Shown one piece after another: positions 1-26,080 of a stretch of DNA of 64,000 bases. The notes below the pieces were generated by a model, which was not told the origin of the DNA, made no database searches, and was given only the letters and a program-made list of their open reading frames with translations. Location: assembly GCA_963817525.1 (NCBI GenBank), contig CAWFOU010000001.1, positions 1 through 64,000 of the forward strand, written 5' to 3'. Source of the stretch: an uncultured archaeon (lineage in GTDB: Archaea; Thermoproteota; Nitrososphaeria; Nitrososphaerales; Gagatemarchaeaceae). Both the position numbers and the translations under genes were made by a program. Each line of letters starts with the position of its first letter. Position 1 is the first letter of the stretch.

Positions 1-626
1 AAGGTATTCGCGTCGAATCCTTGCTTCAGTGACAAGACCAGCGCTTCGGAGAACGACTCGCCGATGAGGCCCAGGTATAGATTGACGTCCAATTTCATCT
101 TGTGACCATTTCCGTCCGAGCCAAGATACGAAACTGATTTCCCGAGCTCATTCAGAAAGTTCTGATACTTTTGGAAAACCTCTTTTTTCCCTCCTACCAG
201 GATCACAAGCTCTCCCTTCGAAGCCAAGTCCTCACTCCCCACGACGGGAGCGTCGAGCCTGTCCACGCCGGCCTTCTTCGCCGCTTCGGCGTGCCTAACC
301 GATGCGACCGGGTCGATGGTGCTCAGGTCGATCCACAGGCTGCCCTTTCTCATTGAGCTGAGAAATCCGTCCTCGCCGAGAGCCACGCTGTCGATTACAT
401 TCTGGTCGGTGAGCGATGTAAGGACGATGTCAACGGAGGAAGCGAGTTCCTTTGCGGACAGGTGAAGAATGGCACCTCCCCCGACGAGGGGCGCGGCCTT
501 CTGGCTTGTCCTGTTGAAAACGTGAACACTATATCCTCTTGTGAGGAGATTCGATGCAAAAGCGCTGCCCATCAGACCTAGCCCGATTACGCCTACCATT
601 GGCCTTGTTTGCTTGGCAGCCTTCAT
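1..626 (-). CDS. NAD(P)-dependent beta-hydroxyacid dehydrogenase (3-hydroxyisobutyrate/tartronate semialdehyde reductase family), runs off the window edge
   Basis: Manual translation: MKAAKQTRPMVGVIGLGLMGSAFASNL...FNRT...DLSTI...DAPVVGS...GNGHKMKL. Has the GxGxMG Rossmann motif, a DAPVxG motif and the catalytic Lys. Absent from the ORF track because there is no stop inside the window. Confidence 0.9.
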   Translation of the reverse strand, partial: MKAAKQTRPMVGVIGLGLMGSAFASNLLTRGYSVHVFNRTSQKAAPLVGGGAILHLSAKELASSVDIVLTSLTDQNVIDSVALGEDGFLSSMRKGSLWIDLSTIDPVASVRHAEAAKKAGVDRLDAPVVGSEDLASKGELVILVGGKKEVFQKYQNFLNELGKSVSYLGSDGNGHKMKLDVNLYLGLIGESFSEALVLSLKQGFDANT

Positions 627-735
627 TTTGATGGTTGCTCGGGACGAAGCAACATGAGGCTTTGAATTATTTAAGAATTCAGCCTCCCCTTGCCCTACTA
701 AATGCCCCTGAACAGGGACGGTCGATGGCCCAGTC

Positions 736-1752
736 TTATTTCAGAGCGAGGACAGCTCTCGCTGGAACGTCCCCTTTCTTCAGTTCTAATAGCACGTCAT
801 TCGCTTCCTGAAGCCTGTGCGTCTCGCAAATCGCTTTCACCTTCCCTGCACTCGCGAGGGCGAGCACGTCCCGCACGTCCTGCCTTGACCCTATGACCGT
901 GCCTAGAATCCTCTTTTCCAAGGGGAATGGGAACTCGCCCAGGTCTGCAAAGACCCCCATGACGATTGTCCCGCCGGGTTTGGTCGCTTCGATCGCGAGC
1001 CTGGCGATCTGCGTTGACGGGGCGAAAACTATGCTAGAATCGACCGCGCCGATCTTCCTCACAGTGTCCGCTGTATTGCCTTCCGAGGGATCGACGGTGG
1101 TGGAGGCGCCGACTTTCTTGGCCACCTCAAGGTGCTGACGGCCTCGGCTGACAGCGACGAGGTCGACTCCATACAGGGCCGCGAATTGCAGCACCATGTG
1201 TCCCACGCCGCCGATTCCGAAAACCGCAACCCTCTTGCCTGGCGCCAGACCTGCTTTCTTGACTGCGGCGTACGCGGTCACCCCCGGACAGAAGAGAGGC
1301 GCAGCCTCGACGTCACCAAGATTGTCAGGGATCTGATAGACGTGGTTTGCGACAGCGACGAGGTACTCGGCGTAGCCTCCATCTAGCGTCTCTCCTGTGA
1401 GCTGCTTTGAAACGCAAATCTCCTCCCGGCTCGACAAACAATACTCACATGACCCGCACGCGGACCAGAGGGGCTGAACGCCGACTCTGTCTCCTTTCTT
1501 TAGACCCGTCACGTCGTCGGCCAAATCCACAATCGTTCCAGAGATCTCATGCCCTGGTATGATGGGGAGTTTTGCTGGGACCCCATTTTTCACCCAGTCG
1601 CCTTCAATCACGTGAAGATTAGACCGGCAGACGCCACAGGCATGAACCTCAATCAGAACCTGTCCGCGTTGGATCGGCGGCTTCGGGACATCCTCCATAG
1701 TGAGCGGCCTGACTTCGATCGGCGCAGGCTTGCGGAGCACTGCAGCCTTCAA
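736..1752 (-). CDS. Zn-dependent alcohol dehydrogenase (MDR, AdhP-like)
   Basis: CGVCRSNLH, GHE, structural Zn CGSCEYC..C, GIGGVG. Confidence 0.92.
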   Translation of the reverse strand: MKAAVLRKPAPIEVRPLTMEDVPKPPIQRGQVLIEVHACGVCRSNLHVIEGDWVKNGVPAKLPIIPGHEISGTIVDLADDVTGLKKGDRVGVQPLWSACGSCEYCLSSREEICVSKQLTGETLDGGYAEYLVAVANHVYQIPDNLGDVEAAPLFCPGVTAYAAVKKAGLAPGKRVAVFGIGGVGHMVLQFAALYGVDLVAVSRGRQHLEVAKKVGASTTVDPSEGNTADTVRKIGAVDSSIVFAPSTQIARLAIEATKPGGTIVMGVFADLGEFPFPLEKRILGTVIGSRQDVRDVLALASAGKVKAICETHRLQEANDVLLELKKGDVPARAVLALK

Positions 1753-3242
1753 GTCTCTATTTCGGGCCGTTTCTGCGGCCCAACCATCCCAGGCTTAAAC
1801 GCAATGTGTTTGTACTCCATAAAGTCGTCTAGTCCGGCGAAACCGCGAAGGCGACCAACGCCGCTGTTTTTGAAACCTCCCTCCTCGAAACCCTCCGTCA
1901 TCAGAACCCAGTCGTTGATCCAGATGGTGCCAGACTGAAGCTCCCTCGCCACGCGCCAGGGGCGGTCGACGTCCCGCGTCCATATTCCGGCCGACAGGCC
2001 GTATTCCGAGTCGTTCGCCAGTGCGATGGCCTCGGCCTCGGTCTCGAAGACGATCATTACGAGGACAGGTCCAAACACCTCCGCTTGGAAGATGGGTAGC
2101 TTGGGATTGGACACTTCGAGCAGAGTCGGACGATAAAAGGCGCCACGCGCCAGCGGCCCCTCCGTGATGGGTCCCCCTCGAACGATGACTTTAGCACCGG
2201 CCCTGATCGCGTCTTCCACCATGCCGTTCACCCGCTCAACGTTCGGCTTGTCGATCATCGGACCCATATCGCTGGTCGGATCAGAGGCCGGGCCTGCCTT
2301 CACCCTTCTCAATCGCGCTCCGAGTTGCTCGCGTACCTTCTGAGCTATCGCACTCTGAACGAGTATCCTGCTTCCGGTCATGCAGAACTGTCCCGCAAAG
2401 ACGGTCAGCGCCTTCTCAATCGTCGGCATCGCGGCATCGAGATTGGCGTCGTTGAACACCAGCATGGGTGTCTTGCCGCCCAACTCGAGGCCGAGGCGCT
2501 TCAGGGAGGGAGCACCCATCGCGGCGAGGGCGCTCCCGGTCTTCGAGCTTCCAGTAAAGCTGATCGTCTGTACGTCTGGTGATTCGCAGAGAAAAGCCAG
2601 CGCCTCGTGGCCGCCCGTTATCATATTGACAACTCCGCGAGGCAGGGACTTCACTTCAGCTATGACTTGAGAGATGAGCGCGTTCATCTGGGCGGTCTCC
2701 TTCGGCATCTTGACGACGGTGGTGCAGCCCGCGCCTAGGGCAGGAGCGAGTGAGCGGATCAGCAGAGCGACCGGGGAATTCCACGGGACGCTGATCCCGG
2801 CGACGCCGATAGGCTGGCGAAGCACTACAGAGAGGGAACCGGGTTCCCATTCGGCGGCGCGCCCCTGGTCTGTGAGGACGAGCGCAGCGTAATAACGGAG
2901 CATCGGCGCCGCCGTCTGCACTTCGTAGATTGCTTCAGGGACTATCTTCCCGTTTTCCGTGGACAACAGCTGAACAAGGTCCTGGGTCCGTGCGTCGAAC
3001 TTCTCTGCCATCTCGTTGAGAACACGCGAGCGCAGGTGGGGGTCATTCTTCCAGGGTGTCTCGCGGAAGACCCTGAGCGCGACCTCGACCGCCTCGCCCG
3101 TATCCTCGCGACTGGCATAGGCATAGCTTCCGATTACTTCTCCGGTGGCGGGGTTTATGCTGTCGTGATGTTCGGTGGAGTCGCGCCAATTGCCATCAAC
3201 CCAGTGCTTGGCTGTTGCACCCTCCGACGCCGGGGTGGTCAC
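1749..3242 (-). CDS. Aldehyde dehydrogenase
   Basis: PWNSP, FTGS, LELGGK, GQFC, EVFGP motifs; 4-bp overlap with the ADH gene. Confidence 0.95.
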   Translation of the reverse strand: MTTPASEGATAKHWVDGNWRDSTEHHDSINPATGEVIGSYAYASREDTGEAVEVALRVFRETPWKNDPHLRSRVLNEMAEKFDARTQDLVQLLSTENGKIVPEAIYEVQTAAPMLRYYAALVLTDQGRAAEWEPGSLSVVLRQPIGVAGISVPWNSPVALLIRSLAPALGAGCTTVVKMPKETAQMNALISQVIAEVKSLPRGVVNMITGGHEALAFLCESPDVQTISFTGSSKTGSALAAMGAPSLKRLGLELGGKTPMLVFNDANLDAAMPTIEKALTVFAGQFCMTGSRILVQSAIAQKVREQLGARLRRVKAGPASDPTSDMGPMIDKPNVERVNGMVEDAIRAGAKVIVRGGPITEGPLARGAFYRPTLLEVSNPKLPIFQAEVFGPVLVMIVFETEAEAIALANDSEYGLSAGIWTRDVDRPWRVARELQSGTIWINDWVLMTEGFEEGGFKNSGVGRLRGFAGLDDFMEYKHIAFKPGMVGPQKRPEIET

Positions 3243-3337
3243 ATCACATCAGGCCGAGGTGCCGAAAGCGGCAGTCCATGCTATAAGATTTACGCGAATA
3301 TGATATCAGGAAAAAGGGCGTGTTAGAGCGTAGGCTT

Positions 3338-3393
3338 CAAAATGCCGAGGGATTCGACCCAGATGGTCCTATGCCCGCCCGGGGCATCACTTC
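3338..3393 (+). repeat. Intergenic repeat copy A (tRNA-3'-end-like, imperfect palindrome)
   Basis: caaaatgccgagggattcgacccagatggtcctatgcccgcccggggcatcacttc; aligns with the copies at 5573 and 7111. Confidence 0.8.
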
Positions 3394-3507
3394 AAAACAA
3401 GCCAGTTCCATCCTCCATTTGTCCAAACGAGGCAGAAACGGGGCAGAGCACCCAGAAACTGAATTTCCGCAAGACAAGCCGCTTTCTCGAGCCTGACGCT
3501 TCACAAG

Positions 3508-5448
3508 CTATTCATGCGCGAAACCGAGGCGCTTGTCGATTGAAACCCAACGTGCGTCTTGTCTCCACTTCGCGAACCAGGGAACCTGTCTAAAAATCAA
3601 GACGGATTCTGAGCCTTCTTTGTAACTCCTCTCGAGGTAGCTGAATCCTTCGTCAATCCTTCCGATGCCAAAGAGGGCGAAAGCGATGTGCGCTTTGTCG
3701 ACGTAGGTGTCTTTGGAGGAGATCTGTGCCCGCGCTATCAATCTGTTGGCTTCATCGTGTTTGCCTGCCAGTCCCAGCAGGCAGGCTAATTCGCATTGGA
3801 ACCTACTGTCGCCTCCGGAGAGGGCTGCGGCGCTCCGCATTTCCCGGATTGCATCTTCAACTTTCGAATCCATGTAAAGGGTCCAGCCGAGATTGTAGTG
3901 TGCGGGCGGATAAGCCGGCTCAGATTCAACCAATCTTCTGAGGCATTCGGTCGCTTCTACCAACCTTCCGAGCGCGGCCAGTACCCAGCCCTCGTTGGCG
4001 CGGATGAGCCGAGAGAGGGGGTCTAGAAGACTCGCAATCTTGATTTGCTCATAGGATTCTTCAAACCTGCCCCGATACCACAACTGAAGCGAGTACCACT
4101 GATGGGCCAGCGCATAGCTTGGATTCAATTCGATGGCTCTTCTGAGCTCGGCCTCCGCTCCATCCCAATCGTGTTCGTGCGTGGCTTTGACCGTCGCCAA
4201 AGAGGCATGAGGCTCGGCGATCGAAGGATCCAGTTGGATAGCCTTGAGCGCGTTTTTCTTGGTTTTCAGTTGTGCCCTTCTGGGCATCCACCAGCCGTAG
4301 TTCGAGTAGATGTGGTAGCAATCTGCCAGGCCTGCGTATGCCAGAGCGAAGTCCGGATCCAAGTCGATAGCCTCGTTGAAATGCCTGACCGCCAAATCGT
4401 TGCCGTCCTTCGTCCTTTCCCTCCAGTATTGCCTCCCCTTGAGGTATGATGTGTATGCCTCCGTGTTCTTTGTAGGCGCCCTTTTCAGATGCATGGTCAC
4501 GCTCGGTGACATGCGCACCCTGAGCGCCTCCGCCACTTTCCGGGCAATTTCGCTCTGGAGGGAAAGGACGTCATCGAAATCTCTGTCGTAGCTCTGGCCC
4601 CAAAGATTTGCCTCGCTGGCCGTATCTATGAGCTGGACTGTTACGCGAACCCTGTTCCCTGCCTTTCGAACGCTCCCCTCTAGAACGGTCCCGACTTCGA
4701 GCTCGATTCCAATTTCCCTAACCTTCTTGTTTGTCCCTTTGTAACACATAGCCGACGTGCGCGCTATCACGCTCATCCCCGCAATCGATGAGGCTGACGA
4801 TATCAATTCCTCAGTCATGCCATCAGCCAGATATTCGTCGCTCTTTTCTGGGCTGAAGTTGGCCAAAGGGAGAATGGCAATCCTTCTCCGATCGGGAATA
4901 GCAGAAGATGTTGCAGTTTGCTCATCCCAGGGCAACATCATGTTGTATACCTCTACCGGCGAGGTCACGTTCTTGAGCGCCTTCGCTCCGACGCTCCTCA
5001 TCCGAACCTCGAACTTGTTATAGACGTGGTCGTAGACCTGACGAGTAAGACAGACACCACCGTCGTCGGCGAGACTTACAATCCTGGAAGCAATGTTGAC
5101 AGCATCGCCTGAAATATCGCCCTGATGACCCACGACATCACCCAGGTGCAGGCCGACTCTCATGCGAATCTTCTTGCCGTTGGGCATGGAAAAATTGAAT
5201 TCCCTCGTCACTCTCTGGACGTCGTATGCGCATCGCACCGCATCGAGGGCGTTCGGAAATTCAACAAGAAATGCGTCTCCCATCGTTTTTACTTCCCTTC
5301 CGTTGTGCCTGAGGAATACCGGCCTCAGAAGCTTTCTCTGCTCCTTAACAATGGCGAGAGAAAGTGATTCGTCCCGTTGGCCTAGTTCAGTATATCCGAC
5401 CAAATCGGTGAACATGATTGCGGCGAGTCTCCTCTCATCCTTTGGCAA
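3508..5448 (-). CDS. Class III adenylate/guanylate cyclase with TolB-like domain and TPR repeats
   Basis: MFTDLVGYT, KTMGDAF and GDAVNIASR cyclase motifs; RIAILPLAN...GMTEELI...EGSVRKAGNRVRVTVQL TolB-like region; C-terminal TPRs. Confidence 0.92.
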   Translation of the reverse strand: MPKDERRLAAIMFTDLVGYTELGQRDESLSLAIVKEQRKLLRPVFLRHNGREVKTMGDAFLVEFPNALDAVRCAYDVQRVTREFNFSMPNGKKIRMRVGLHLGDVVGHQGDISGDAVNIASRIVSLADDGGVCLTRQVYDHVYNKFEVRMRSVGAKALKNVTSPVEVYNMMLPWDEQTATSSAIPDRRRIAILPLANFSPEKSDEYLADGMTEELISSASSIAGMSVIARTSAMCYKGTNKKVREIGIELEVGTVLEGSVRKAGNRVRVTVQLIDTASEANLWGQSYDRDFDDVLSLQSEIARKVAEALRVRMSPSVTMHLKRAPTKNTEAYTSYLKGRQYWRERTKDGNDLAVRHFNEAIDLDPDFALAYAGLADCYHIYSNYGWWMPRRAQLKTKKNALKAIQLDPSIAEPHASLATVKATHEHDWDGAEAELRRAIELNPSYALAHQWYSLQLWYRGRFEESYEQIKIASLLDPLSRLIRANEGWVLAALGRLVEATECLRRLVESEPAYPPAHYNLGWTLYMDSKVEDAIREMRSAAALSGGDSRFQCELACLLGLAGKHDEANRLIARAQISSKDTYVDKAHIAFALFGIGRIDEGFSYLERSYKEGSESVLIFRQVPWFAKWRQDARWVSIDKRLGFAHE

Positions 5449-15635: not shown

Positions 15636-17033
15636 CTAGGACGTGAAGGCGAACGGGTTCACGGGGAAATAGACGAAGAAGAACGTGACCGCCGCCACCA
15701 GCCATAGCAGGGCGAGAAGCTTCTCGTTCTCGACGCGGCCGCGTGCGGCGAAGGCGACGACCATGGGGATGCCCAGCGCCAGCCCGACGTCGGTATTGAT
15801 GAAGTAGAACGCGTACTCAACCCTGTGGCTCACGAGGGAGATGTAGAAGAGGGGAAGGTACGTCCCCGCGATGACGCAGGCCACGAGCGCGTCGACCTCC
15901 TTGGCGCTCCTCTTGACGGCCTTCCAGACCAGGACGGGGACGATCAGCCAAATCGAGTACCACACGACAAGGTTGCCCATGCCCTGCCAATCGATCGGGT
16001 GCACGGCCGTCTCGACGGTGGTCCCGTCGGGTTGGGTGACGGGGATATCGGTCGTGGTCACGTAGTACGGGAGCGGGCCGAGGTTGAACGGGAGTATCCA
16101 GCTCCAGGGATAGCAGTTCCACTGGTTTACGCTCCCGCAGCCTGTGAGGGATGATTGGTAGGTGTAGTAGTACTCGAAGTTCTGTATGGGGTTGGTCACC
16201 GGGTCGGACCCGACGGTCTTGGTTGACGTGGTCGTCGTGGTCAGGTTCGCGATCGGGTTCACGCTGACGATGGGCTCGACCACCACCGTGGTCTTGGCGT
16301 AGGGATGATATGCGAGGTCGTAGCCCCAGAGCGGCAACCCCACCACGAGCGCGAGGATCACGGCGAACACGGCTATCCGCTTGAGGCCGATGGGCGGTCC
16401 CCTGACCCTGAGCCTCTTCCCGTTGGCCCACAGGTGGTAGAGCACCAACGCGAGGAGGAAGAACACACCGGTCTCCTTGCTCAGGATGGAGAGGCCGAAG
16501 GCGAGGGCGGAGAGGTAGTAGCGTCGCTTGAAGTAGGCCAGGAACCCGGCGAGGGCGAAGAGCACCGGAGGCCCGTCCAGGAGGAGGAGGGACGTGTGGA
16601 TGAAGAACAGGTTCTCGAACGCGAGCATCGACGCGGCGAGGAGCGCCAAGTCCTTCGAGAAGAAGTGCCTCGCCAACTCGTACATCATCCAGACCGCGAG
16701 GGTGCCGATCACCGCGTAGAAGATCCGCCACCCGAAGAAGTTGTCCCCGAAGATCGCGATGCCCAGCGCCCCCCAGAGCTTCCCGAAGAAGGGGTGCTCC
16801 AGGTTGTTCGCGACCCCGTGGAGGAGGTCGAGCGACGCCGGCACGTAGTACGCCTCGTCGAAGACGAGCCCGCCCCCGTTCGAAGTGTCCGAGGGGAACG
16901 AGAGGGCAAAGAGATGTAGCGCGAAGATGATCAGCAGCAGGTGGCCTATGTTGAACCCCCTGACCATCCTCTGCAAGAGGCCTTTGTCCGACCCCTGGGC
17001 GTCGTCCATCGGCGTCTCCATCGCCGCCTCCAA
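15636..17033 (-). CDS. GT-C glycosyltransferase (PMT-like protein mannosyltransferase family)
   Basis: VFDEAYY, EHPFFGK, FGWR, LLDGP, many TM helices. Confidence 0.85.
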   Translation of the reverse strand: MEAAMETPMDDAQGSDKGLLQRMVRGFNIGHLLLIIFALHLFALSFPSDTSNGGGLVFDEAYYVPASLDLLHGVANNLEHPFFGKLWGALGIAIFGDNFFGWRIFYAVIGTLAVWMMYELARHFFSKDLALLAASMLAFENLFFIHTSLLLLDGPPVLFALAGFLAYFKRRYYLSALAFGLSILSKETGVFFLLALVLYHLWANGKRLRVRGPPIGLKRIAVFAVILALVVGLPLWGYDLAYHPYAKTTVVVEPIVSVNPIANLTTTTTSTKTVGSDPVTNPIQNFEYYYTYQSSLTGCGSVNQWNCYPWSWILPFNLGPLPYYVTTTDIPVTQPDGTTVETAVHPIDWQGMGNLVVWYSIWLIVPVLVWKAVKRSAKEVDALVACVIAGTYLPLFYISLVSHRVEYAFYFINTDVGLALGIPMVVAFAARGRVENEKLLALLWLVAAVTFFFVYFPVNPFAFTS

Positions 17034-17107
17034 GGCTGCCCACTTGTTCGCTCGATGTTATAACCTCAAACGTCTAAATCCCGACTCGCTCGCGGGTCGC
17101 AGAGACC

Positions 17108-17761
17108 ATGCAGGCCACGCTCCGCGGGCGCCTAGACGGGGTGACGCACTGGGTCGTGGTGGGCTCCTACTTCGCGGCCCTTCTCGCCTTCGCCGCGTCG
17201 CTGGTCCTCACCTTCGAGGGGAAACTCTGGGTAGGCCCTGTGGGCGACATCTCGTCGGTCTCAGTGGGCTCCGTCTCGGTCATCTACGCGCTGAGCCAAT
17301 ACAGGTTCAGGAGGGTCGGCTATACCGAGATGAAGTCGATCGTGCTCGGGGTCCTCTTCGCGAACGCCTTCCTCCAGTGCTACGAGCTCGCCTACGGCCT
17401 CACCTGGAGCCTGAGCGCGGTCGTCAACGACCCCTACACCGTGACCGGGACAGACGTCAGGACGTTCCTGCTATGGATTGTGATGATATCCCCCATCCTC
17501 CTGGTTCACGAGCATCTCAGGTTCAAGCGGACAGGCGCGCTCCTACTCTTCCTTACGGCGGTGGTCTGGGCTGCGTGGATACTCTACGGCTTCCCGCAGT
17601 ACTACCTCTCGGGCTACTTCTTCCCCCAGTACCTTCACACCACCGACCCGTTCCACCTCAGCCTGTGGCTAAACTTCGGGTCAAAGGCCCTTCTCGCGGT
17701 GTTCTTCGTCTCCTTGCTGGAGCCTCGGAAGGCCTTGAGGGCCGCTCTCGGTCGCCTCTAG
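17108..17761 (+). CDS. Hypothetical integral membrane protein
   Basis: About 6 TM helices, host-like codon usage. Confidence 0.7.
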   Translation: MQATLRGRLDGVTHWVVVGSYFAALLAFAASLVLTFEGKLWVGPVGDISSVSVGSVSVIYALSQYRFRRVGYTEMKSIVLGVLFANAFLQCYELAYGLTWSLSAVVNDPYTVTGTDVRTFLLWIVMISPILLVHEHLRFKRTGALLLFLTAVVWAAWILYGFPQYYLSGYFFPQYLHTTDPFHLSLWLNFGSKALLAVFFVSLLEPRKALRAALGRL

Positions 17762-18296
17762 CACTCGCGTCGGAAACCCCGTCCGCCTGGGGTCGCTTTC
17801 GGAGTTGTGCTCCTTGTCTAGGTTTCATGGCATCTTGGGTGCTCCGCTCGACCTCGACTTTGTGCCGACCCTGCGACGAGGCTGGTCAGAGGAGCATACG
17901 AGGCGAGGAAAAGAGGCTGTCGACTTTCTGGTTCGGACGGGGGGAGTCTGTCCCATCCTCGACTAATCGACTAGCTCTGGTGCTCCTTTCCGGGCGTTCC
18001 TGGTGCAACGCGGTCGTGTTCAGATTCCTCTAGTGGAATCCACCTCGGGGCATATTAACTCCGCCAAAGTGACACTCCGATGGTTTTGGAAAATCGCTCC
18101 GGAATCGTGTGCGACCTAAAGATGAACGCTCGGGGCAGGTTCGCAATCGCCTGGAACATACAGCAAGCGGCTCGAGTGGGGAACGCCGCTGAGACAAAGC
18201 CGATACACTTCATGCTGACATCACCTGACCCGAGACGCGCGTCGACGAAAAATCGAGCACCCGTTCTTAACGCTTAAATCGAGTGGGCGAGCTGGT

Positions 18297-19305
18297 GTGT
18301 CGAGTTTGAGACGATTTCTCTCTTTTGCGTCGATTTTGGCGCTTCTTTCGATTGTCGCCCTCTCCGGAGCGACCGCAGTCAACGCCCAATCTCAACCCGC
18401 GTGGACTCCAAGCGGCTGGGTGACCTCGGGCTCGATCTTCGACCTGACTGGGAACTCGAACCTCGCCTCTGGCCAAGCCCTGATAGCGGGTCATTCTTAC
18501 AATATGACATTGGAGATCACGGTGCCGATAACCTCGACGAGCACGAAGACCTTCGCCGTGAGCCTGAACCCGAGGTTCGGGGCTGCCACAGGCCAGTCGG
18601 TCTACTGGGCCCTTCACACGTCCCAGTATCCGGGGTATGATCGGACGCTCTTCACTGCGAGCGAGAAGACGGTTAATTTCAACTACACGCAAGGCACACT
18701 GAAGCTGTCCGCGTATTTCGCGGTGCCCGTTAACTTCACGATCCCGATCGCAAAGTACTCCACCCCGTCGGGGAACGGCACCGTAACCCTCCACCTGCCC
18801 CAGAACAACATCGTCTTCATCTCGGTAGTCCCACAGGGGTCGACTTCCGCCGGGTCGTTCTCGGCCTCCGTCCAAGACCAGGACATCCAGACCTATCTTG
18901 CGACCTACAGCCAGGCGTCGAACCTCGTGCCCTCGGGGAAGATACCGTCGACCTACCAGACCTTGGTCAACTCGATCATCGCACAGGCGCAGGGCCTCGA
19001 CCAGCTGGGGCTGCCTGACAACGCGACCGCGTTGCTCAACACGCTAGTCCCCGCTGAGTTCCCGGTACCTCCAAGCTCTTCCCTGCAGACGACCTTGCTG
19101 GCGGGCCTGGCCGCCGCCGTGATAGTGATAGTCCTACTTGGCCGTCCTCACCCTCCGCAGCAGGGGCAGAAGCGGCTACTCGACGGGGATAATCAACGAC
19201 GTCCAGAAGGAACTGGCGGTCCTCGAGGTGACGGCAGCCAAGTATGACAAGGGGCTGGCGGACAAGCTAAAGGCCGTCAGGGACAAATTGAGTGACTCAA
19301 GATGA
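18297..19305 (+). CDS. Secreted protein with C-terminal TM anchor and short cytoplasmic helix (frameshift near 19140); first gene of the tubulin-like operon
   Basis: Signal peptide and several NxT sequons. Removing one base after VIVLL gives AVLTLRSRGRSGYSTGIINDVQKELAVLEVTAAKYDKGLADKLKAVRDKLSDSR*, whose stop forms an ATGA overlap with 19302. Confidence 0.8.
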
Positions 19306-21980
19306 GCAACAGTAGCACGGCCAAGATGGCTTCATTCGCGAGCATCCACCTGGTGGGGCTCGGCGGCACCGGGACGAACGTGATCCAGGCGCTCATCGAA
19401 AGCGACCGGTTCTTCAGGCTGCTGACAGCAGAGGACTTCAACATAGCCTGCCTCTCGGTCGACATCGCAGATGCCGACATCGCGAATCTCGTTAACTCCT
19501 ACAAGGGCACGCAGTCAAAGCTCGAGGCAAAGGGGGTCTCGGTCGACCACCTCTGGGTCAGGGGTCTGGGCATGAAGTTCAACACCCCAGAGTCCTTGTT
19601 CGAGTTCATGGGCAAGTACAACACCTACCTCATGAAGGAGGGTATAGTCGCCACCAACTACAAGCCATGGGTGGCGTCGTCAATGACCATCCCGCCCCTC
19701 GCTGGAGGCGTGGGGAGGATGAGGGCCCTGAGCAAGGCGGTCTACGCCCTCAACTATTACCACTATAGTGAGCTCAACAGCGCCATCTCTGTCTTCAAGG
19801 ACCGCGTCCTGACCTCAAAGTTCCAGCCGATTGTCGTCCTCGTATTCGGCCTGGGCGGCGGCACGGGCAGCGGGATGGTATTCGACTTTGCGAGGCACCT
19901 CCGCGCCAAGCTGGGCTCTTCCGTGCCCATCATGGGGCTGGCGATACTTCCGAGCGCCGCCGACGACCTGTTGGCGAGGGGGCCCGCCCCGTACAACGCG
20001 CTGATGGAAGCGGAGCTCCTCTTCAACCGGAAGCTCAACGAGCAGGTCGCCAAGAAGTACGGCGCCCCCTACCAGAACCCCTTCAACTCGCTCTTCTTCC
20101 TCCCCCTCGACCCGGTGTACAACAACAGGAACAGCCTGTCCGCGGCCAAGAAGGAGCTGGACGACTGCATCATCGACATCCTGAGCATGTTCATGCGCTT
20201 CGACCTCGCCGACCTCCTCAGCAGGGTCGGGACGAACAACGACTTTGGGGCGAACTGGGCGCACACCCTGGCCTACCTCCGCATCCGGTATCCGGTCCAG
20301 GACTACATCGACTACATGCACGAATACCTCAAGCTGCTCGAGACCCTCGGCTCCTTCATGGACGCCAAGAGAGAGGCCCTCGGGACGATAAACGACGCGA
20401 TAAGGAACAGGTTCGGCGCCCTCAAGAACCTTTACAGGAAGACGCTCATCCAAACGAACAACTATCGCCCCGACTCCTTCGACTCCGAGGTCGAGGAGGT
20501 TGTCCGCAGGGCTGGGAAGTTCGAGGTCGAGTTCAAGAAGCAGGTCCGCGGCCTAGAAGATTTTGCACTGAACTACAACCAAAGGTGGACCAGGGTGCTG
20601 CAGGCGATGGCCTTCGGCCCCGAGACGATCGAGTACAGCGTGATACAGGGGCTGACTCACTTCCACCAGCAGATCTCCAACCTGGGCACCAACTACGAGC
20701 AGTTCCTCAAGGACATCCCGCTGTACACCTCCGAGCTGGAGAACAGCATCACCGCGAGCAAGTTCTTGACCTCGAGCCAGATAAGGCAGGTCAGGGGCTA
20801 CCTGAGTTTCGTCAACCTCGTGGGGACGTCGCTAGAGACCCTCACGCTGTACATCCGCGCCAAGGGGCTTGCGGACGAGGTCGCCGTCCTCTACGCGAAG
20901 GACGAGAGCAAGGAAGGGAGGATGGCGGCGGCGAAGGGCGAGACCGACCTACTACCGCTCTACAAGGCGGCCGGCTACATCCTGAATCGCCCTGAGACCG
21001 AGATCAAGGTCTCCGACCAGTACATCCCGGGCATCAGGATCGTAAAGAAGGGCCTCGACGACACGTTCAGGGAGGCGAGCTCCTCCTTGGAGTCGAACGA
21101 GAGGCTGCTAGCCCAGAAGGAGCAGGACCTTTCTAGGATCAGCAAAGAGATCGACAAGATCAGGGTGGACGTCAGCGGGAAGAAGAAGCTCCTCAAGAGG
21201 ACGCAAGAGTCCATACAGAGCGAGGTGGAGGGCGTGCGCGCCCAGATCGAGGGGCAGAGGGCAGACCGCGACAAGATGAAGTCGGACCTGGACAAGCTGA
21301 CGGAGCTCGAAAAGGCCCTCGAGATCACCTCGCCCTACAGAAAGCTCCTCGCGACCGTGGTCAACAAGAGCGTGGAGCTGAACACGCTGATGAGCGGGAT
21401 CACGAACACCGGCAGCTACTACGAGAGGGTGGTGGAGCTGAGCGAGGTGGAGCAGGTCAAGATCATGGAGAAGATCCTCCGGGAGGACGAGGAGAGCCTG
21501 AAGGGCGACTCGATCCTCAAGGAGATCGTCGACCGTGAGAGGTTCCGGAGCATCGTGAAGAGCTACATACGGATCTTCAGCGTGCCCAACTACCCCGGCC
21601 TCGCCGACAACTACCGGTCAGACCTGATATGGGCGACCGTCGGCATCCCGCCAGGCCTCTGGGACCAGGAGCTCCAGGGGGCGCTCTCGAGCACCCTCAA
21701 CGTCTACTCGAGCGTCGAAGCCAGCAAGAGCATCTCGGTCAGGCAGATCCCCCAGATGGACCCATGGACCATAACGTTCCTGGTCATCATGGCGAAGGCG
21801 AGGATCGACCAGATCGAAAAGTTCCCCTCGATGAAGAACGACATGGAGGGGGTGCAAAAGTCCGAGAGGCTGCTCTTCAGGAGCTTCCTCCTCGAGCAGG
21901 GACTGGCTAGCCTCGACGACCTGATAGCCAAGTTCGAGGAGAAAAGGGCCGCGCTGAACTTGAAAGAAAGGGAGGCCTGA
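19302..21980 (+). CDS. Divergent tubulin/FtsZ-superfamily GTPase with long helical/coiled-coil region (FtsZ-like 1 / Tubulin_2 type)
   Basis: VGLGGTGTNV (T1), GGVGRMR, FGLGGGTGSG (T4 signature), AILP, FDLADL (T7-like); heptad-rich region at about aa 580-700. Confidence 0.88.
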   Translation: MSNSSTAKMASFASIHLVGLGGTGTNVIQALIESDRFFRLLTAEDFNIACLSVDIADADIANLVNSYKGTQSKLEAKGVSVDHLWVRGLGMKFNTPESLFEFMGKYNTYLMKEGIVATNYKPWVASSMTIPPLAGGVGRMRALSKAVYALNYYHYSELNSAISVFKDRVLTSKFQPIVVLVFGLGGGTGSGMVFDFARHLRAKLGSSVPIMGLAILPSAADDLLARGPAPYNALMEAELLFNRKLNEQVAKKYGAPYQNPFNSLFFLPLDPVYNNRNSLSAAKKELDDCIIDILSMFMRFDLADLLSRVGTNNDFGANWAHTLAYLRIRYPVQDYIDYMHEYLKLLETLGSFMDAKREALGTINDAIRNRFGALKNLYRKTLIQTNNYRPDSFDSEVEEVVRRAGKFEVEFKKQVRGLEDFALNYNQRWTRVLQAMAFGPETIEYSVIQGLTHFHQQISNLGTNYEQFLKDIPLYTSELENSITASKFLTSSQIRQVRGYLSFVNLVGTSLETLTLYIRAKGLADEVAVLYAKDESKEGRMAAAKGETDLLPLYKAAGYILNRPETEIKVSDQYIPGIRIVKKGLDDTFREASSSLESNERLLAQKEQDLSRISKEIDKIRVDVSGKKKLLKRTQESIQSEVEGVRAQIEGQRADRDKMKSDLDKLTELEKALEITSPYRKLLATVVNKSVELNTLMSGITNTGSYYERVVELSEVEQVKIMEKILREDEESLKGDSILKEIVDRERFRSIVKSYIRIFSVPNYPGLADNYRSDLIWATVGIPPGLWDQELQGALSSTLNVYSSVEASKSISVRQIPQMDPWTITFLVIMAKARIDQIEKFPSMKNDMEGVQKSERLLFRSFLLEQGLASLDDLIAKFEEKRAALNLKEREA

Positions 21981-24241
21981 TGGCCCAGGTTGAGAGCAGG
22001 GCAAGGACAAGGGTCACTGCTTACACTTCAGCTCTGATTGTAGCAGTTGCGGCTTCCGTCTTCCTGGAGGTAGTCCCCTTCCTTCCCGCGCCACCTATAC
22101 TGCCGCTCCTCGTCGGCCTCGCACTAGGTGGGCTCTCGCTCAGGAACAAAGGCGTCGCGATAGCGACCCTCTACCTACTCGTCTACTTCTCGGTCCTGTG
22201 GCAGATGATAGGCTTCGGCTTCTTTCAGCTCCTCTCGGCCGGCGTCGGCGTCGCCGTCCTTCTGGCCATGGCCGTCCCCCTCTTCCCCTTCCTGACCAAG
22301 AGGGTCGACCTGAGCTCCATGGCCCTAGCCATCCTCGCGGTGGCGCTCATGCTCACTCCCGCCTACTTCGTCTCCATACCCCTCGTGGCCGTCGCCGCTC
22401 TGACCTTCGGCAGCCTGGCGAGCCTCGAGGCCCTCGCCTTGACCTACGTCTTCTTCCTCACGCCCTTTCTCCTCCTTGAGAACGCTCTCTATTTCACCAC
22501 CACGAGCGGGGCCACGGCTCCGATAATCTTCGGGCAGTTCTCTTTACTGGCTCAGAACCTGAGGCCGCCCCTGCCGGGGCTCAACATCCTCCTCACGGGG
22601 CTGCCGGCGAACTACCTCTCGCACCTCGCGGTTCCAGTCTCTACATGGCTCTCGGACAGCTCGGGAGTGCTCCTCATCCCGATGGCGATATTTGGCGTCG
22701 TCCTCCTGGCCTCCTCGTCGATAGGCAGCCTGGCTCGCACCTTCACAGAGAGGTTCGAGAAGGAGAGGGGCATGACCGGGAGGGTGAAGCTCGTCTTTGC
22801 GCCGCTGGTGGTAGCGCTGGTCACCCCGACCGTGTTCATCGTCCTCCTCGCGCTCCTCTCGCGCCCTGGGAGCGGCGGCTTCCAGACCTCCCTCACCAAC
22901 GACCCATCTCACCTTCAAGCCGTCTACATGCTCTGTTCGTCGTTCCTCTTGACTACCTCCTTCATCGGCCGCGAATCCCTCATCCTGAGGCTCGAGGGCG
23001 TGCAGGTCGGGACGGAGGGGCTTGAGCAGCTGATGAAAGAGTGTCAGGAAAAGATGAAGGACGTCCAAGGGCTCCTCGACCGGGTCTCCAGGTCGGTGCC
23101 CTCGATGAGCTTGAGCGGGGAGAGGCAATCGATGTTAGAGTACGCGGCGCGCCTGGAAGACGTCCGGAGGCAGATGAACGGTGCGAGCGCGACGATGATC
23201 GCGCAGTTCCAGTCTACGATCGAGGCCACGGTCCTACGGCCTCTCTCCGAGCAGCCCGAGCTCCAAAGGAGGAGGGTGGCAAACGAGATCCGGGGATTGA
23301 TCTCCGCAACGGCTACCGCGAACAACCACCTCGCAGAGGCGAACGTGCCGCTCCGCTATCCCGACATACCGGCCGTGCCCGACTTCTTCACGCTGGATGA
23401 CCTGGCGCGGGCCTACGAGGCGGCGGCAGCGCCTATCAAGGCCGTCACAACCGATCTCTCCGACCTCTACGGGAAGGAGTCGGCCGCCATGAACGTCCTG
23501 ATGGGGCAGGAAGAGGTGAACCCGCCAGTCAGCACGAAGGTCCTCCTCGACGCCAACGAGCTTATCGGGGCGATGAGGCTGGTGGCGGAAGAGTACTGGC
23601 TCAGCTTCCAGATCCGGTGGGCCGAGCAGCTCGACCAGAAGAAGTCCGCGCTCCTACAGGGGATGAAGGGCATAGAAGGCGGCGTGGGAGAGAACGAGCT
23701 GCAGATCCTCCGAGGGATCGGGGCGGTGGTGGCGGATGCTAACCCTGCGACGTCCTCGACGACCTTGGAGGGCATGCGTGAGCTGAGGGTGATGCTCGAG
23801 TCCGTCTTGTCGCAGGCGATCTCGGGCGCGGACAGGGTGCGCAAGATGCTCGAGTCTCTCGAGCTGATGTCTGTGAGGACCCTGAAGTTCGAGACAATCA
23901 ACAGGCTGAGCGATGTCGTGGCGCTGAAGAAGAAGCTCGAATCCGTCACCCTGAGCTTCGACAGCCTGACCAAGTTCCTGGTCGGCGCTGCGAGCGTCCT
24001 CATGAACCAGGCGGACGCGCGGAAGCGTGACCGCGACAACCTCATCGTCCTTGCACAGTATCCGCTCGCCAAGAAGATAATCCAGAGCATGTTGAGCGGC
24101 CAGACCAGCTTGGCCCTCGCAAAGCTTCCGTACCAGAGAAGGGCGGCGGGGCTATACGCAGAGCTCTACGCCAGCGGCACCCCGGGCGTCGAGTACGACG
24201 AGAACGAAGAGACCCTGACTGTGAGGGTAGAGAATGCCTAA
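21980..24241 (+). CDS. Polytopic membrane protein with long cytoplasmic helical/coiled-coil C-terminus
   Basis: About 10 TM helices in the first ~330 aa, followed by amphipathic helices; overlaps both neighbours. Confidence 0.8.
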   Translation: MAQVESRARTRVTAYTSALIVAVAASVFLEVVPFLPAPPILPLLVGLALGGLSLRNKGVAIATLYLLVYFSVLWQMIGFGFFQLLSAGVGVAVLLAMAVPLFPFLTKRVDLSSMALAILAVALMLTPAYFVSIPLVAVAALTFGSLASLEALALTYVFFLTPFLLLENALYFTTTSGATAPIIFGQFSLLAQNLRPPLPGLNILLTGLPANYLSHLAVPVSTWLSDSSGVLLIPMAIFGVVLLASSSIGSLARTFTERFEKERGMTGRVKLVFAPLVVALVTPTVFIVLLALLSRPGSGGFQTSLTNDPSHLQAVYMLCSSFLLTTSFIGRESLILRLEGVQVGTEGLEQLMKECQEKMKDVQGLLDRVSRSVPSMSLSGERQSMLEYAARLEDVRRQMNGASATMIAQFQSTIEATVLRPLSEQPELQRRRVANEIRGLISATATANNHLAEANVPLRYPDIPAVPDFFTLDDLARAYEAAAAPIKAVTTDLSDLYGKESAAMNVLMGQEEVNPPVSTKVLLDANELIGAMRLVAEEYWLSFQIRWAEQLDQKKSALLQGMKGIEGGVGENELQILRGIGAVVADANPATSSTTLEGMRELRVMLESVLSQAISGADRVRKMLESLELMSVRTLKFETINRLSDVVALKKKLESVTLSFDSLTKFLVGAASVLMNQADARKRDRDNLIVLAQYPLAKKIIQSMLSGQTSLALAKLPYQRRAAGLYAELYASGTPGVEYDENEETLTVRVENA

Positions 24242-25277
24242 GTGTCCGAACGGCCATGAGCAGAGGCTAGGCCTCAAATGCGCCGCTTGCGGCGCCGCCC
24301 TCTCTTACAGAGGCGCGGTCGAGGAGCTGGTCACCCTCCCGAAGGTGGAGCCATACTACGGGAAGGTCGCGGTGATCGTGGCTGGATATCCAAAGCTCGC
24401 GCTGAAAGCGGATTACGTCAGCGAGATCTCGGTGGGCGCGTCCGACCTGCAGTCTCCCAACGGGTTCCAGGTCGCGAGCATACGCGGAGGGAACTGGCTA
24501 GACTACAGCAACAAGCACCTTCAGAACCTGCGGAGATGGATGACGCTCGTGGGGATAGGCAAGTCGACTGACAGGTTCCTCGTGGTCGATGCCACCGACC
24601 CGCTCTCCGTCCTCACGCTCACCGCGCTCCCTGCCCTCGAGCACACCGCCGTCATCGCCGTCGTCGCCGACCAGGAGTCCACCCCCGTCGAGCAGAACGC
24701 GAGCTACGTCGCGCTTTCGCTCGCCCTCAAGAAGGGCCTCCCGGTCATCGCTCTCTCGGAGACATTTGAGAGGGAGATGCTGTACTTCACCGAGGACGAG
24801 GGGTTCGCGACAAAAGCCGACGCGATGTCGATGCTGCTAACGCCCCTGCTAGGGGCTGCGGACGACCTGATGGACCTGCTCGAGAGAGACCTGAGCCTGG
24901 GGATAAAGATGCACTGCCTCTCGGCGATCTTGGCGGGCTCCAAGAGCGTCTATGGCACCGACACGAACGCGTTCATGGCTCAGAGCTACGACCTCTCGAT
25001 GGCAGCGAAGCTCGAGCAATATCAGACCGTCCACTCACTCGCCTTTTCGCAAAGCGAAGCCAAGGGGGAGTTCGAGAAGAGCTTCGGCGTGTTCAGGAAC
25101 AGGAGGTTCAAGGGGGCCCTGAACGCGGAGTTCCGGTTCCGCGAGAAGGACTCCCCGCTCTACGACCTTGTGACGATCTATGGGATGAGCAGCGAGGCCT
25201 CCCTCGAGGACATGACCGCCGGATACCAGGCGATCGTGCAGAACATGCCCCAGCTGAGCGCCGAAGGAGCGTCTTGA
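24234..25277 (+). CDS. Zn-ribbon protein with probable degenerate tubulin/FtsZ-like domain
   Basis: CPNGH...CAACG; ESTPVEQNASY resembles tubulin STAVVEPYNS; lacks GGGTGSG. Confidence 0.6.
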   Translation: MPKCPNGHEQRLGLKCAACGAALSYRGAVEELVTLPKVEPYYGKVAVIVAGYPKLALKADYVSEISVGASDLQSPNGFQVASIRGGNWLDYSNKHLQNLRRWMTLVGIGKSTDRFLVVDATDPLSVLTLTALPALEHTAVIAVVADQESTPVEQNASYVALSLALKKGLPVIALSETFEREMLYFTEDEGFATKADAMSMLLTPLLGAADDLMDLLERDLSLGIKMHCLSAILAGSKSVYGTDTNAFMAQSYDLSMAAKLEQYQTVHSLAFSQSEAKGEFEKSFGVFRNRRFKGALNAEFRFREKDSPLYDLVTIYGMSSEASLEDMTAGYQAIVQNMPQLSAEGAS

Positions 25278-26080
25278 AATTGGCCGCCTCGCCAGAGACC
25301 GGGGAAGCCCCGTCCGACCTGCCCTCCCACGACTACAAAGTGTTGACCGCCACGTACCTGGAGAAGACCTATTCCGACGTCGTCCTCCGCCTGGCGGACT
25401 CGGGCGCCGAGATGGAGCTCAGAGAGTGGACCAGCAGGAAGAAGGAGGCACAATCCGTGGTGGCAAGGTTTCGCCTTGAGCCCAACGCCCAGGTCTTGCT
25501 TGACGGCCCGCTGCTGAAGGTCGCGGAGCTCTCGATAACCCTGGAGTCGCCCAGCATCGCGGCCCAGGTCGCCCTGACCCTGGAGCGCCCCGCGAGGGAA
25601 CGCGAGACCCTGAGGCTCCTCTTGGAAGCGGAGTCGTCGGTCAGCGGCTTCCTCGAGACGCGCGAGGAGGCGTTGAAGTTTCTCTCTTGGCTGAAGGCCG
25701 ACCCGCGAGGCGCTTTGTTGAGCGTCGAGTCGCTGTGGACCACGCCCGACACCGAGCCCCTCGACGCCGTCTACGCCAGCTACTCCGGGCGGGTGGCCGA
25801 GTCCTTCGCGAAGATGACGTCCTCCCTCTCAGGGGCTGAGACGGGCCTGGGCGCTCCGACGACCGAGATGCTCTACGCGCTCACCTACACGATAGGCGCA
25901 GTCCAGAACGCCCTCCTGGCGAGCGATTCGGACATGGCCCAGGAGCTCGCCGCCCTAGGGGAGTTCGGCATCACCGCGACGGCCGAGGGACTGCGCACAG
26001 AAAAGCAGACCGCGCGGCTGATGGCGATGGCCCACCCCAGCCTCGCCGCGTTCGCAATAGGCCGGACCCCAACGAGCTAG
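25274..26080 (+). CDS. Hypothetical protein, last gene of the tubulin-like operon
   Basis: TTGA overlap with the upstream gene; beta-rich N-terminus and helical C-terminus. Confidence 0.65.
   Translation: MKLAASPETGEAPSDLPSHDYKVLTATYLEKTYSDVVLRLADSGAEMELREWTSRKKEAQSVVARFRLEPNAQVLLDGPLLKVAELSITLESPSIAAQVALTLERPARERETLRLLLEAESSVSGFLETREEALKFLSWLKADPRGALLSVESLWTTPDTEPLDAVYASYSGRVAESFAKMTSSLSGAETGLGAPTTEMLYALTYTIGAVQNALLASDSDMAQELAALGEFGITATAEGLRTEKQTARLMAMAHPSLAAFAIGRTPTS

Follow-up and report, generated by a model that had tools for sequence, protein, structure and literature searches.

What would a divergent FtsZ-like GTPase do in an archaeon that also carries canonical FtsZ, and which proteins would it work with? 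The question is raised by five co-directional open reading frames (ORFs) on the + strand, found at 18297-26080 in the ORF list of a window, by which we mean the whole stretch of 64,000 nucleotides that was analyzed (positions 1 to 64,000 of contig CAWFOU010000001.1, assembly GCA_963817525.1). The contig comes from an uncultured archaeon of the Gagatemarchaeaceae (Thermoproteota; Nitrososphaeria). A previous description made from the letters alone, here called the sequence-only reading, had taken the ORFs for a membrane-linked operon built around a giant GTPase. We find that the operon is a variant of a known but uncharacterized family, FtsZl1/Tubulin_2, in which the GTPase (gene 2) is encoded together with a predicted second tubulin-fold protein (gene 4), two predicted membrane proteins (genes 1 and 3), and a soluble protein (gene 5). 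With moderate confidence, we read the five products as a GTPase assembly of two tubulins, tethered to the membrane, that would organize the envelope or the membrane.

The FtsZ-like GTPase

Gene 2 (19302-21980, + strand) codes for a protein of 892 amino acids that Pfam and an AlphaFold2 model both assign to the FtsZl1/Tubulin_2 GTPases. It passes the Pfam family Tubulin_2 (PF13809) over residues 17-221 with an E value of 6.6e-15 and 55.7 bits, above the gathering cut-off of 27 (57.9 bits when the organism's own genome was scanned with this model), and the sequence-only reading was right in calling it a divergent member of that family. It stays under the cut-off of Pfam Tubulin (26.5 bits versus 33), and in the NCBIfam scan it is no FtsZ equivalogue, scoring 17.4 bits against the TIGR00065 cut-off of 295.2, so that it is not a canonical FtsZ, as had also been claimed. 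None of the CetZ-specific NCBIfam models matched gene 2, and its likeness to CetZ was measured only on structures. The motifs that had first drawn attention to the protein, GLGGTG (G19-G24), GGGTGSG (G185-G191), and the DLAD loop (D301-D304), are all confirmed, with no variation among the 47 homologues in the alignment; the same alignment has W777, W787, W822, and E865 as invariant residues of the C-terminal part. The loops are named T1, T4, and T7 here by what we take to be their analogy with FtsZ, and the FDLAD of gene 2 presumably corresponds to the catalytic T7 loop of FtsZ, NxDFAD, a correspondence that we assume rather than compute.

Homologues of gene 2 are numerous, with 379 matches at an E value of ≤0.001 among 8000 candidates scored, and the 120 that were listed are mostly of around 870 to 910 amino acids. 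The carriers named among the matches listed belong to Nitrososphaerota, Bathyarchaeia, and Dehalococcoidia, together with Sulfolobus tengchongensis, which has a full-length homologue of 42% identity. Between the most distant clades, the identity is 34-36% over the full length, with a conserved core.

The AlphaFold2 model of gene 2 (predicted local distance difference test [pLDDT] of 88.1, predicted template modeling score of 0.76) is structurally closest to CetZ. Foldseek against the PDB returned CetZ2 (4b45; E value, 1.2e-7) as the best match, followed by CetZ1 (E value, 1.1e-6). With VIA-align, the highest score was again that of a CetZ (3zid; Z, 25.6; root mean square deviation, 3.5; 320 residues aligned within 12..855 of the model), ahead of CetZ1 (25.4), CetZ2 (24.3), FtsZ chains (approximately 22), and tubulins and BtubA/B (approximately 21). 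The aligned part of the model ends at approximately 833 with FtsZ chains, at 855 with CetZ, and at 875 with tubulins. DSSP assigns an alpha/beta region to residues 13-329, an all-helical one to 332-700, and another alpha/beta region to 708-859; the helical block is uninterrupted and lies between the strand at 320-329 and the strands at 776-833. Because the CetZ alignment draws its roughly 320 residues from the whole of 12..855 and the helical block stands in between, gene 2 appears to possess a complete two-domain tubulin fold, whose C-terminal domain is split by a helical insertion of around 370 residues.

In the model, residues 12-331 (19335..20294, + strand) comprise the nucleotide-binding domain, the core helix, the T7-like loop (FDLADL, 300-305), and the strand with which the C-terminal domain begins. 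Residues 332-700 (20295..21401, + strand) form the insertion, or stalk, which includes a long antiparallel pair of helices (H564-619 and H627-673). Residues 701-892 (21402..21977, + strand), an alpha/beta segment with strands at 776-782, 811-817, and 823-833 plus the terminal helices, appear to supply the rest of the tubulin C-terminal domain. The turn between the two long helices of the stalk carries a glycine and three basic residues (G626-K629; 21177..21188, + strand). At this turn (loop 620-626), G626 is invariant, K629 is conserved in at least 90% of the sequences, and the glycine with three K/R residues is found in 12 of 12 sequences (alignment A1); this G-K-K-K turn is a putative membrane- or partner-binding tip.

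The model fits the layout given for FtsZl1 (an FtsZ-like domain at the N terminus, a long coiled coil, and a C-terminal domain), and the predicted fold, with T1, T4, and T7 acidic residues, places gene 2 in the tubulin/FtsZ superfamily. FtsZl1 was defined in 2010 by Makarova and Koonin, who predicted a role in membrane remodeling, could match neither T6-H7 nor the C-domain, and allowed that these proteins may not polymerize (PMC2875224). A fold split as in our model would explain why T6-H7 and the C-domain went unrecognized in that description.

A second, degenerate tubulin

In gene 4 (24234-25277, + strand; 347 amino acids), the sequence-only reading had seen a Zn-ribbon and a probable degenerate tubulin domain, and both are borne out. 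The ribbon is a CxxxH...CxxC motif formed by C4, H8, C16, and C19. The AlphaFold2 model (pLDDT of 92.0) has the full tubulin fold at residues 41-347, with VIA-align scores that amount to ties among BtubA (Z, 23.0; 303 residues aligned, model residues 42-347), OdinTubulin (22.9), gamma-tubulin (22.8), and CetZ (22.2-22.5). The GTP loop is missing, as the window's protein has VVDATDPLS where the glycine-rich T4 loop (GGGTGSG) is expected. No Pfam or NCBIfam family matched gene 4, and all 87 of its homologues in the large protein collection lack a Pfam domain; wherever a source name is given for one of them, it is "hypothetical protein."

Iterated profiles tie gene 4 to the proteins that occupy the same position in distant loci. 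A clean profile of the clade A proteins reaches them in one step (E values of 1e-4 to 5e-8), and hhalign matches the clade A alignment to that of clade B with 97.2% (E value, 4.7e-11; 339 columns). It is in the distant loci that the nucleotide-binding motifs are found: the Chloroflexota orthologues retain a T1-like G-x-G-x-x-G and GGGTG[SA]G, and the latter is exact in 4, near in 2, and degenerate in 4 of the 10 clade B rows (alignment A3). Three of the eight orthologues tested (those of loci L021, L043, and L063) pass Pfam Tubulin (PF00091) with 39-41 bits versus a cut-off of 33, and the clade B profile retrieves CetZ, FtsZ, BtubB, Asgard tubulins, and TubZ from the PDB, with a best E value of 2e-8. 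Clades A and B conserve the CxxxH...CxxC ribbon, which the other two arrangements lack. From the model and the profiles, we predict that gene 4 has a tubulin fold and that its GTP site decayed in the archaeal lineages. It did not arise by a recent duplication of gene 2, since the two align over just 45 columns, around T4 alone.

Conservation and spread of the module

Whether the five genes occur together in other genomes had been named beforehand as a point on which the operon reading depends, and their linkage proved to be well kept. We confirmed 86 relatives in contigs representing one genome per species and fetched 80 loci, in which the gene order recurs across two domains, far beyond chance. 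Among the loci with enough flank, gene 1 is directly upstream of gene 2 in 71 of 73, gene 3 is downstream of it in 61 of 62, and gene 4 is in 52 of 54, the misses being in L049, L075, and L046. The linkage spans Nitrososphaerota, Bathyarchaeia, and Dehalococcoidia, with three gene orders. In locus L010, genes 3, 4, and 5 occur once more, inverted (366-4522, - strand) and without genes 1 and 2, some 2.5 kb upstream of the complete operon there.

The conserved unit is the five-gene module and not its neighborhood. A PMT-type glycosyltransferase, an HtrA-like protease, and TauE flank the operon in the window and recur just in its closest relatives; in general, the flanks are housekeeping genes, unrelated between lineages. 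Thirteen near-duplicate loci were skipped before the flanks were chosen, and 148 of the 166 chosen ORFs were scanned, the rest being 10 ORFs of >800 amino acids (9 of them scanned separately) and 8 near-duplicate Nitrosopumilales-type neighbors. The commonest Pfam families among the 148 were amidohydrolase (6), iPGM (4), and glutamine synthetase (3), and the commonest PADLOC model had 3 hits.

A FastTree phylogeny of gene 2 was computed from 71 of 85 profile hits, leaving out rows of <800 amino acids, and has three groups, of 22, 15 (Bathyarchaeia), and 34 rows. The window falls in the 22-row group, with Nitrososphaerota, some Bathyarchaeia, and Desulfurococcales. Within the 34-row group, two Chloroflexota groups and an 11-row Nitrososphaerota-labeled group make up an unresolved 33-row cluster with a support of 99, in which Nitrosopumilales-labeled loci (L032-L042, L067, and L071) stand beside those of Dehalococcoidia/Chloroflexota (L021-L031 and L043-L066). 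The sharing of this cluster by Chloroflexota and Nitrososphaerota-labeled rows suggests transfer between domains. Among the contigs of bacterial carriers are two of 1.77 Mb and 0.76 Mb, which makes mis-binning unlikely.

Of 201 genomes sampled from the class, 8 match gene 2 at an E value of ≤0.001, and 5, the window's genome included, do so at near full length. The window's genome has one copy of the operon, and no second copy was found in it. At a completeness of 95%, it has no match to Snf7/ESCRT-III. It codes for three FtsZ equivalogues (315-319 bits versus the cut-off of 295.2), for which reason the five-gene module is an accessory system and not the divisome. A fourth, divergent FtsZ-like paralogue (95 bits, 388 amino acids) is found near the window; the FtsZ-like positions on contig C1 of this genome are 65745-66206 (1.7 kb past the end of the window), 485534, 937068, and 1149768.

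Membrane and soluble partners

Gene 1 (18297..19305, + strand) is a type I surface protein, predicted to be glycosylated, with a signal-like hydrophobic N terminus (residues 3-31), a C-terminal transmembrane (TM) segment (260-286), and five NxS/T sequons. Its layout consists of an ectodomain of approximately 230 amino acids, a single TM segment, and then a conserved cytoplasmic helix of approximately 45 amino acids. The tail is the best-conserved part of the protein: its pattern is kept in 32 sequences from all clades, with L50 invariant and R6 and D36 conserved in at least 90%, and the identity of the ectodomain between clades is just 23-29%. A complex prediction of gene 2 (alignment A2) with the gene 1 tail (A8), run without controls, scored 0.00 versus a mark of 0.32 and is uninformative either way.

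In the window, gene 1 is interrupted by a frameshift. The printed ORF (18297-19247, 316 amino acids) carries one extra base near 19136 (19131-19141), within the stretch coding for the TM segment, and the conserved cytoplasmic tail of the homologues resumes in a second frame from around 19141 (19141-19302), up to a TGA (19303-19305) overlapping the start codon (ATG) of gene 2. Intact, the gene would code for 335 amino acids. As the base is missing from three of the three contigs that cover the site (from three public soil-metagenome runs of one study; a fourth public run lacked coverage of 19136), the frameshift probably stems from an error in assembly or from variation between strains. The contamination of the window's genome is 8.75%. 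The secreted and TM-anchored nature that the sequence-only reading gave to gene 1 holds for the printed ORF, but the short cytoplasmic helix is absent from it and exists only in the second frame, so that the description evidently matches the intact form. Much the same applies to the overlapping stop and start codons said to join all five genes. As printed, three of the four junctions overlap (genes 2 and 3 by 1 nucleotide, genes 3 and 4 by 8, and genes 4 and 5 by 4) and gene 1 stops 54 nucleotides ahead of gene 2; the ATGA overlap of these two genes exists only in the second frame.

Upstream of the GTG start of gene 1, by 18-23 nucleotides, there is a TTAAAT (18274-18279), which may serve as a TATA-like promoter element of the archaeal type and give a near-leaderless transcript. 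Between the PMT-type glycosyltransferase gene and gene 1, an ORF of 217 amino acids (17108-17761, + strand) codes for several hydrophobic helices; a 382-amino-acid ORF overlapping it (16885-18033) was rejected as spurious for its Arg/Pro/Gly-rich translation. In four clade A loci, a protein of 816-944 amino acids is encoded directly upstream of gene 1 on the same strand (L005:4066-6897, L006:4401-7007, L014:4432-6879, and L018:4400-7006). Three of these pass Pfam Flg_new_2 (InlB B-repeat), and that of L014 has a Big_1 match under the Pfam cut-off; such a surface protein is absent from the window and from most loci.

Gene 3 (21980-24241, + strand; 753 amino acids) is a polytopic membrane protein with a helical tail, and the dimensions first given for it (some 10 TM segments and a tail of approximately 400 amino acids) are close to those measured. 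By Kyte-Doolittle hydropathy, there are approximately 8-10 TM segments within residues 11-297, followed by a predicted cytoplasmic tail of approximately 450 amino acids that is helical, charged, and rich in E, R, L, and A. Gene 3 has no family in Pfam, NCBIfam, the PDB, or the protein atlas: Pfam on 27 homologues gave 9 families with 1 member each, the PDB profile search returned coiled-coil-type matches alone (E values of ≥0.0013), and the atlas matches were two unnamed, Bathyarchaeota-rich clusters at 0.89.

Every arrangement of the module includes a fifth, soluble protein of 230-350 amino acids. In the window, it is gene 5 (25274-26080, + strand; 268 amino acids), with a beta-rich N-half and a helical C-half, and it has no known family in Pfam; the PDB profile search gave 0 hits, and the best value in the protein atlas (0.75, an EAL cluster) is uninformative. 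A clean profile, built without the fusions described below, locates gene 5 after gene 4 in the clade A loci. The fifth gene takes this position in clade A and its sister group and follows gene 3 in clade C. In clade B, it separates genes 3 and 4, being on their strand in the Chloroflexota loci and on the opposite one in the Nitrosopumilales-labeled loci. The fifth proteins of clade B (X) and clade C (Y) are homologous to each other (hhalign, 98.5%), and gene 5 shows only weak links to those of the other clades (33% and 46%). The X/Y family obtained 3 hits among PDB profiles, all with E values of ≥0.1, and a PH/GRAM domain in the fifth protein is weakly hinted at, by GRAM matches in 2 of 29 members and a bPH_3 match in 1 of 29. 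Two loci have an in-frame fusion of gene 4 with the C-half of gene 5, the helical one, and lack the beta-rich N-half (L010:12888-14447, 519 amino acids, and L007:6723-8046, cut by the contig end). The fusions are a hint that these two proteins may act together.

Proposed mechanism and alternative explanations

The predicted folds, the motifs, the gene linkage, and the phyletic spread are established, and from them we infer GTPase activity, polymerization, contacts, and a cellular role. The five genes would build one membrane-associated complex on two tubulin-superfamily proteins. Gene 2 would bind GTP and, given that its T7-like acidic pair is invariant, would probably hydrolyze it only when a second tubulin-fold subunit docks head to tail, a dependence that would lead to filaments or at least to GTP-dependent oligomers. 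Its stalk of approximately 370 residues, extending from the C-terminal domain and ending in the G-K-K-K tip, could be the arm that reaches the membrane partners. Gene 4 would be a noncatalytic co-subunit (a cap, a nucleator, or an alternating partner) working with an adaptor-like gene 5. Gene 3 would anchor the assembly in the membrane, and gene 1, via its conserved cytoplasmic helix, would join it to a glycosylated ectodomain. As its output, the complex would organize or deform the membrane and the cell surface, in cells whose division already relies on canonical FtsZ. The sequence-only reading, right on the anatomy of the operon, had proposed a trans-envelope cytomotive machine for membrane remodeling, vesicles or nanotubes, cell-cell contact, or defense, a function that is likewise hypothetical.

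Several points weigh against this proposal. The split of the gene 2 fold hangs on a single AlphaFold2 model, and the subfamily is known here from genes and predicted models alone. The 45-column alignment of genes 2 and 4 does not make them an obvious co-evolved pair like alpha/beta-tubulin. One Bathyarchaeia clade encodes gene 4 on the opposite strand, so that strict co-transcription does not hold everywhere, and genes 3 and 5 belong to no recognizable family that would point to an effector step. The patchy distribution (5 of 201 genomes near full length; 8 of 201) fits any accessory function. Makarova and Koonin also left open that FtsZl1 does not polymerize (PMC2875224).

The last point leads to a different reading, in which gene 2 acts as a dynamin-like GTP switch instead of a filament, dimerizing head to head or with gene 4 on GTP binding, and the stalk with its basic tip works as a lever or paddle on the membrane for fission, fusion, or vesicle budding without long polymers. 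The model of gene 2, a GTPase head with a long helical hairpin returning to it, is what such a switch would look like, and the conserved G-K-K-K turn and the two membrane partners of the operon suit it as well. Membrane remodeling and vesicle biogenesis have been proposed for FtsZl1, with nonfilament behavior left open (PMC2875224); according to the same source, every characterized member of the tubulin superfamily polymerizes. Together with an invariant T7-like pair that points to head-to-tail contacts, and with no amphipathic or lipid-binding domain identified beyond the weak PH/GRAM hints in the fifth protein, this makes the switch unlikely in our view. The opposite departure takes the filament further: genes 2 and 4 could be an alpha/beta-tubulin-like pair that arose independently in prokaryotes, in which a subunit that is catalytic and carries its own coiled-coil arm, and another that is a pseudo-GTPase, form a membrane-bound heteropolymer whose force would pass via the polytopic anchor to the surface glycoprotein. 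We think it rather improbable that the module is such a trans-envelope motor for surface movement or membrane shaping, in cells whose envelope would consist of just a membrane and an S-layer, as in many archaea and at least Dehalococcoides.

The same partners could also serve an anti-virus or conflict system, one of the roles that the sequence-only reading had entertained, where the surface protein would sense, the tubulin pair would switch, and the polytopic protein would damage the membrane in an abortive infection. The sparse distribution within the class, the 33-row tree group that suggests transfer between domains, and a self-contained module whose flanks change between lineages would all fit this kind of system. 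The searches lend defense no support: the best match of the five proteins across PADLOC and PHROGs has an E value of 0.014 (LmuB, in the coiled-coil region), the 148 flanking ORFs yield just 3 hits for their commonest PADLOC model and housekeeping families as the commonest in Pfam, and there is no nuclease, protease, or NADase domain. Gene 2 is, moreover, strongly conserved between the most distant clades, unlike diversifying sensors, and we find a defensive role quite doubtful. Equally hard to favor is a platform for a surface structure, on which the tubulin pair would place or move gene 1, or a neighboring large surface protein, in the S-layer envelope, implying a role in adhesion or surface motility. 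The predicted glycosylated gene 1 and the protein of 816-944 amino acids upstream of it in four clade A loci would be its cargo, although the latter is missing from the window and most loci. In Synechocystis, phototactic motility was impaired by the disruption of another Tubulin_2 gene cluster, sll0445-0447, and proteins related to pili co-purified with Sll0445 (PMC9880817), but the partners in that cluster differ (FtsA-like and DivIC-like). There is no linked secretion ATPase or pilin either, T2SSE being found in 2 of the 148 flanking ORFs.

Relation to known tubulin-family systems

Like the FtsZl1/Tubulin_2 proteins described to date, a family that is functionally uncharacterized, gene 2 occurs in a genome that also has canonical FtsZ and is encoded among membrane proteins. 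Most of the described FtsZl1 operons contain vWA, kinase, P-loop GTPase, or OmpA genes (PMC2875224). The operon of the window has none of these, as the sequence-only reading had noted for the first three: vWA, Ser/Thr kinase, P-loop GTPase, and OmpA domains were absent by Pfam and NCBIfam from the five proteins, and they are not among the 25 commonest families of the 148 flanking ORFs. Compared with FtsZl1 as presented in the cited sections of that work, the gene 2 model adds a T7-like loop and a complete C-domain split by a stalk, and the operon adds a second tubulin-fold gene, which those sections do not mention (PMC2875224). The same source describes a disrupted Sulfolobus member, SSO1376. 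FtsZL1 was reported in two Sulfolobales in a 2022 paper (PMC9723716), and the superfamily phylogeny of 2023 left out Tubulin_2 as too divergent (PMC9871819).

CetZ is the best structural match of gene 2 (Z of 25.6, 25.4, and 24.3 for 3zid, 4b46, and 4b45) and one of the tied best of gene 4 (22.2-22.5), although the identities are low (12-18% and 7-12%, respectively). Like CetZ, which acts in cell-shape control, genes 2 and 4 code for tubulin-family proteins outside the divisome, in archaea with FtsZ as well, but CetZ has no stalk insertion, Zn ribbon, or dedicated operon of membrane proteins. With the heterodimeric tubulins (alpha/beta-tubulin, BtubA/B, and Asgard AtubA/B), the module shares the presence of two tubulin-fold genes in one locus, one partner with a noncatalytic or degenerate nucleotide site, and top matches of gene 4 that include BtubA (23.0) and OdinTubulin (22.9). 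Unlike those pairs, genes 2 and 4 are very distant from each other, with an insertion of 370 amino acids in one and a Zn ribbon in the other.

The Sll0445-Sll0447 cluster of Synechocystis (Tubulin_2, FtsA-like, and DivIC-like) differs from that of the window in its partners and in belonging to a bacterium with an outer membrane. The impaired phototaxis of its mutants, reported in a complexome study, makes Sll0445 the only Tubulin_2 protein with a reported phenotype that we found in the literature searched (PMC9880817). In full-text searches that covered journals outside subscription, this operon type did not appear in any study of function or structure.

Significance

No branch of the tubulin superfamily is more divergent than FtsZl1/Tubulin_2, which has had no solved structure or known function since 2010. 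The operon provides this branch with a defined and conserved list of partners and with a structural hypothesis, in which the tubulin fold of Tubulin_2 proteins would be complete but interrupted by a stalk within the C-domain. It also recovers a second, degenerate tubulin subunit from proteins that databases label "hypothetical protein." For prokaryotic cytoskeleton research, the polymerization and the membrane role of these proteins become concretely testable through D301/D304, the G-K-K-K tip, and the gene 1 tail. The spread of the module over Nitrososphaerota, Bathyarchaeia, and Dehalococcoidia suggests that its function is tied to an envelope type that these groups share.

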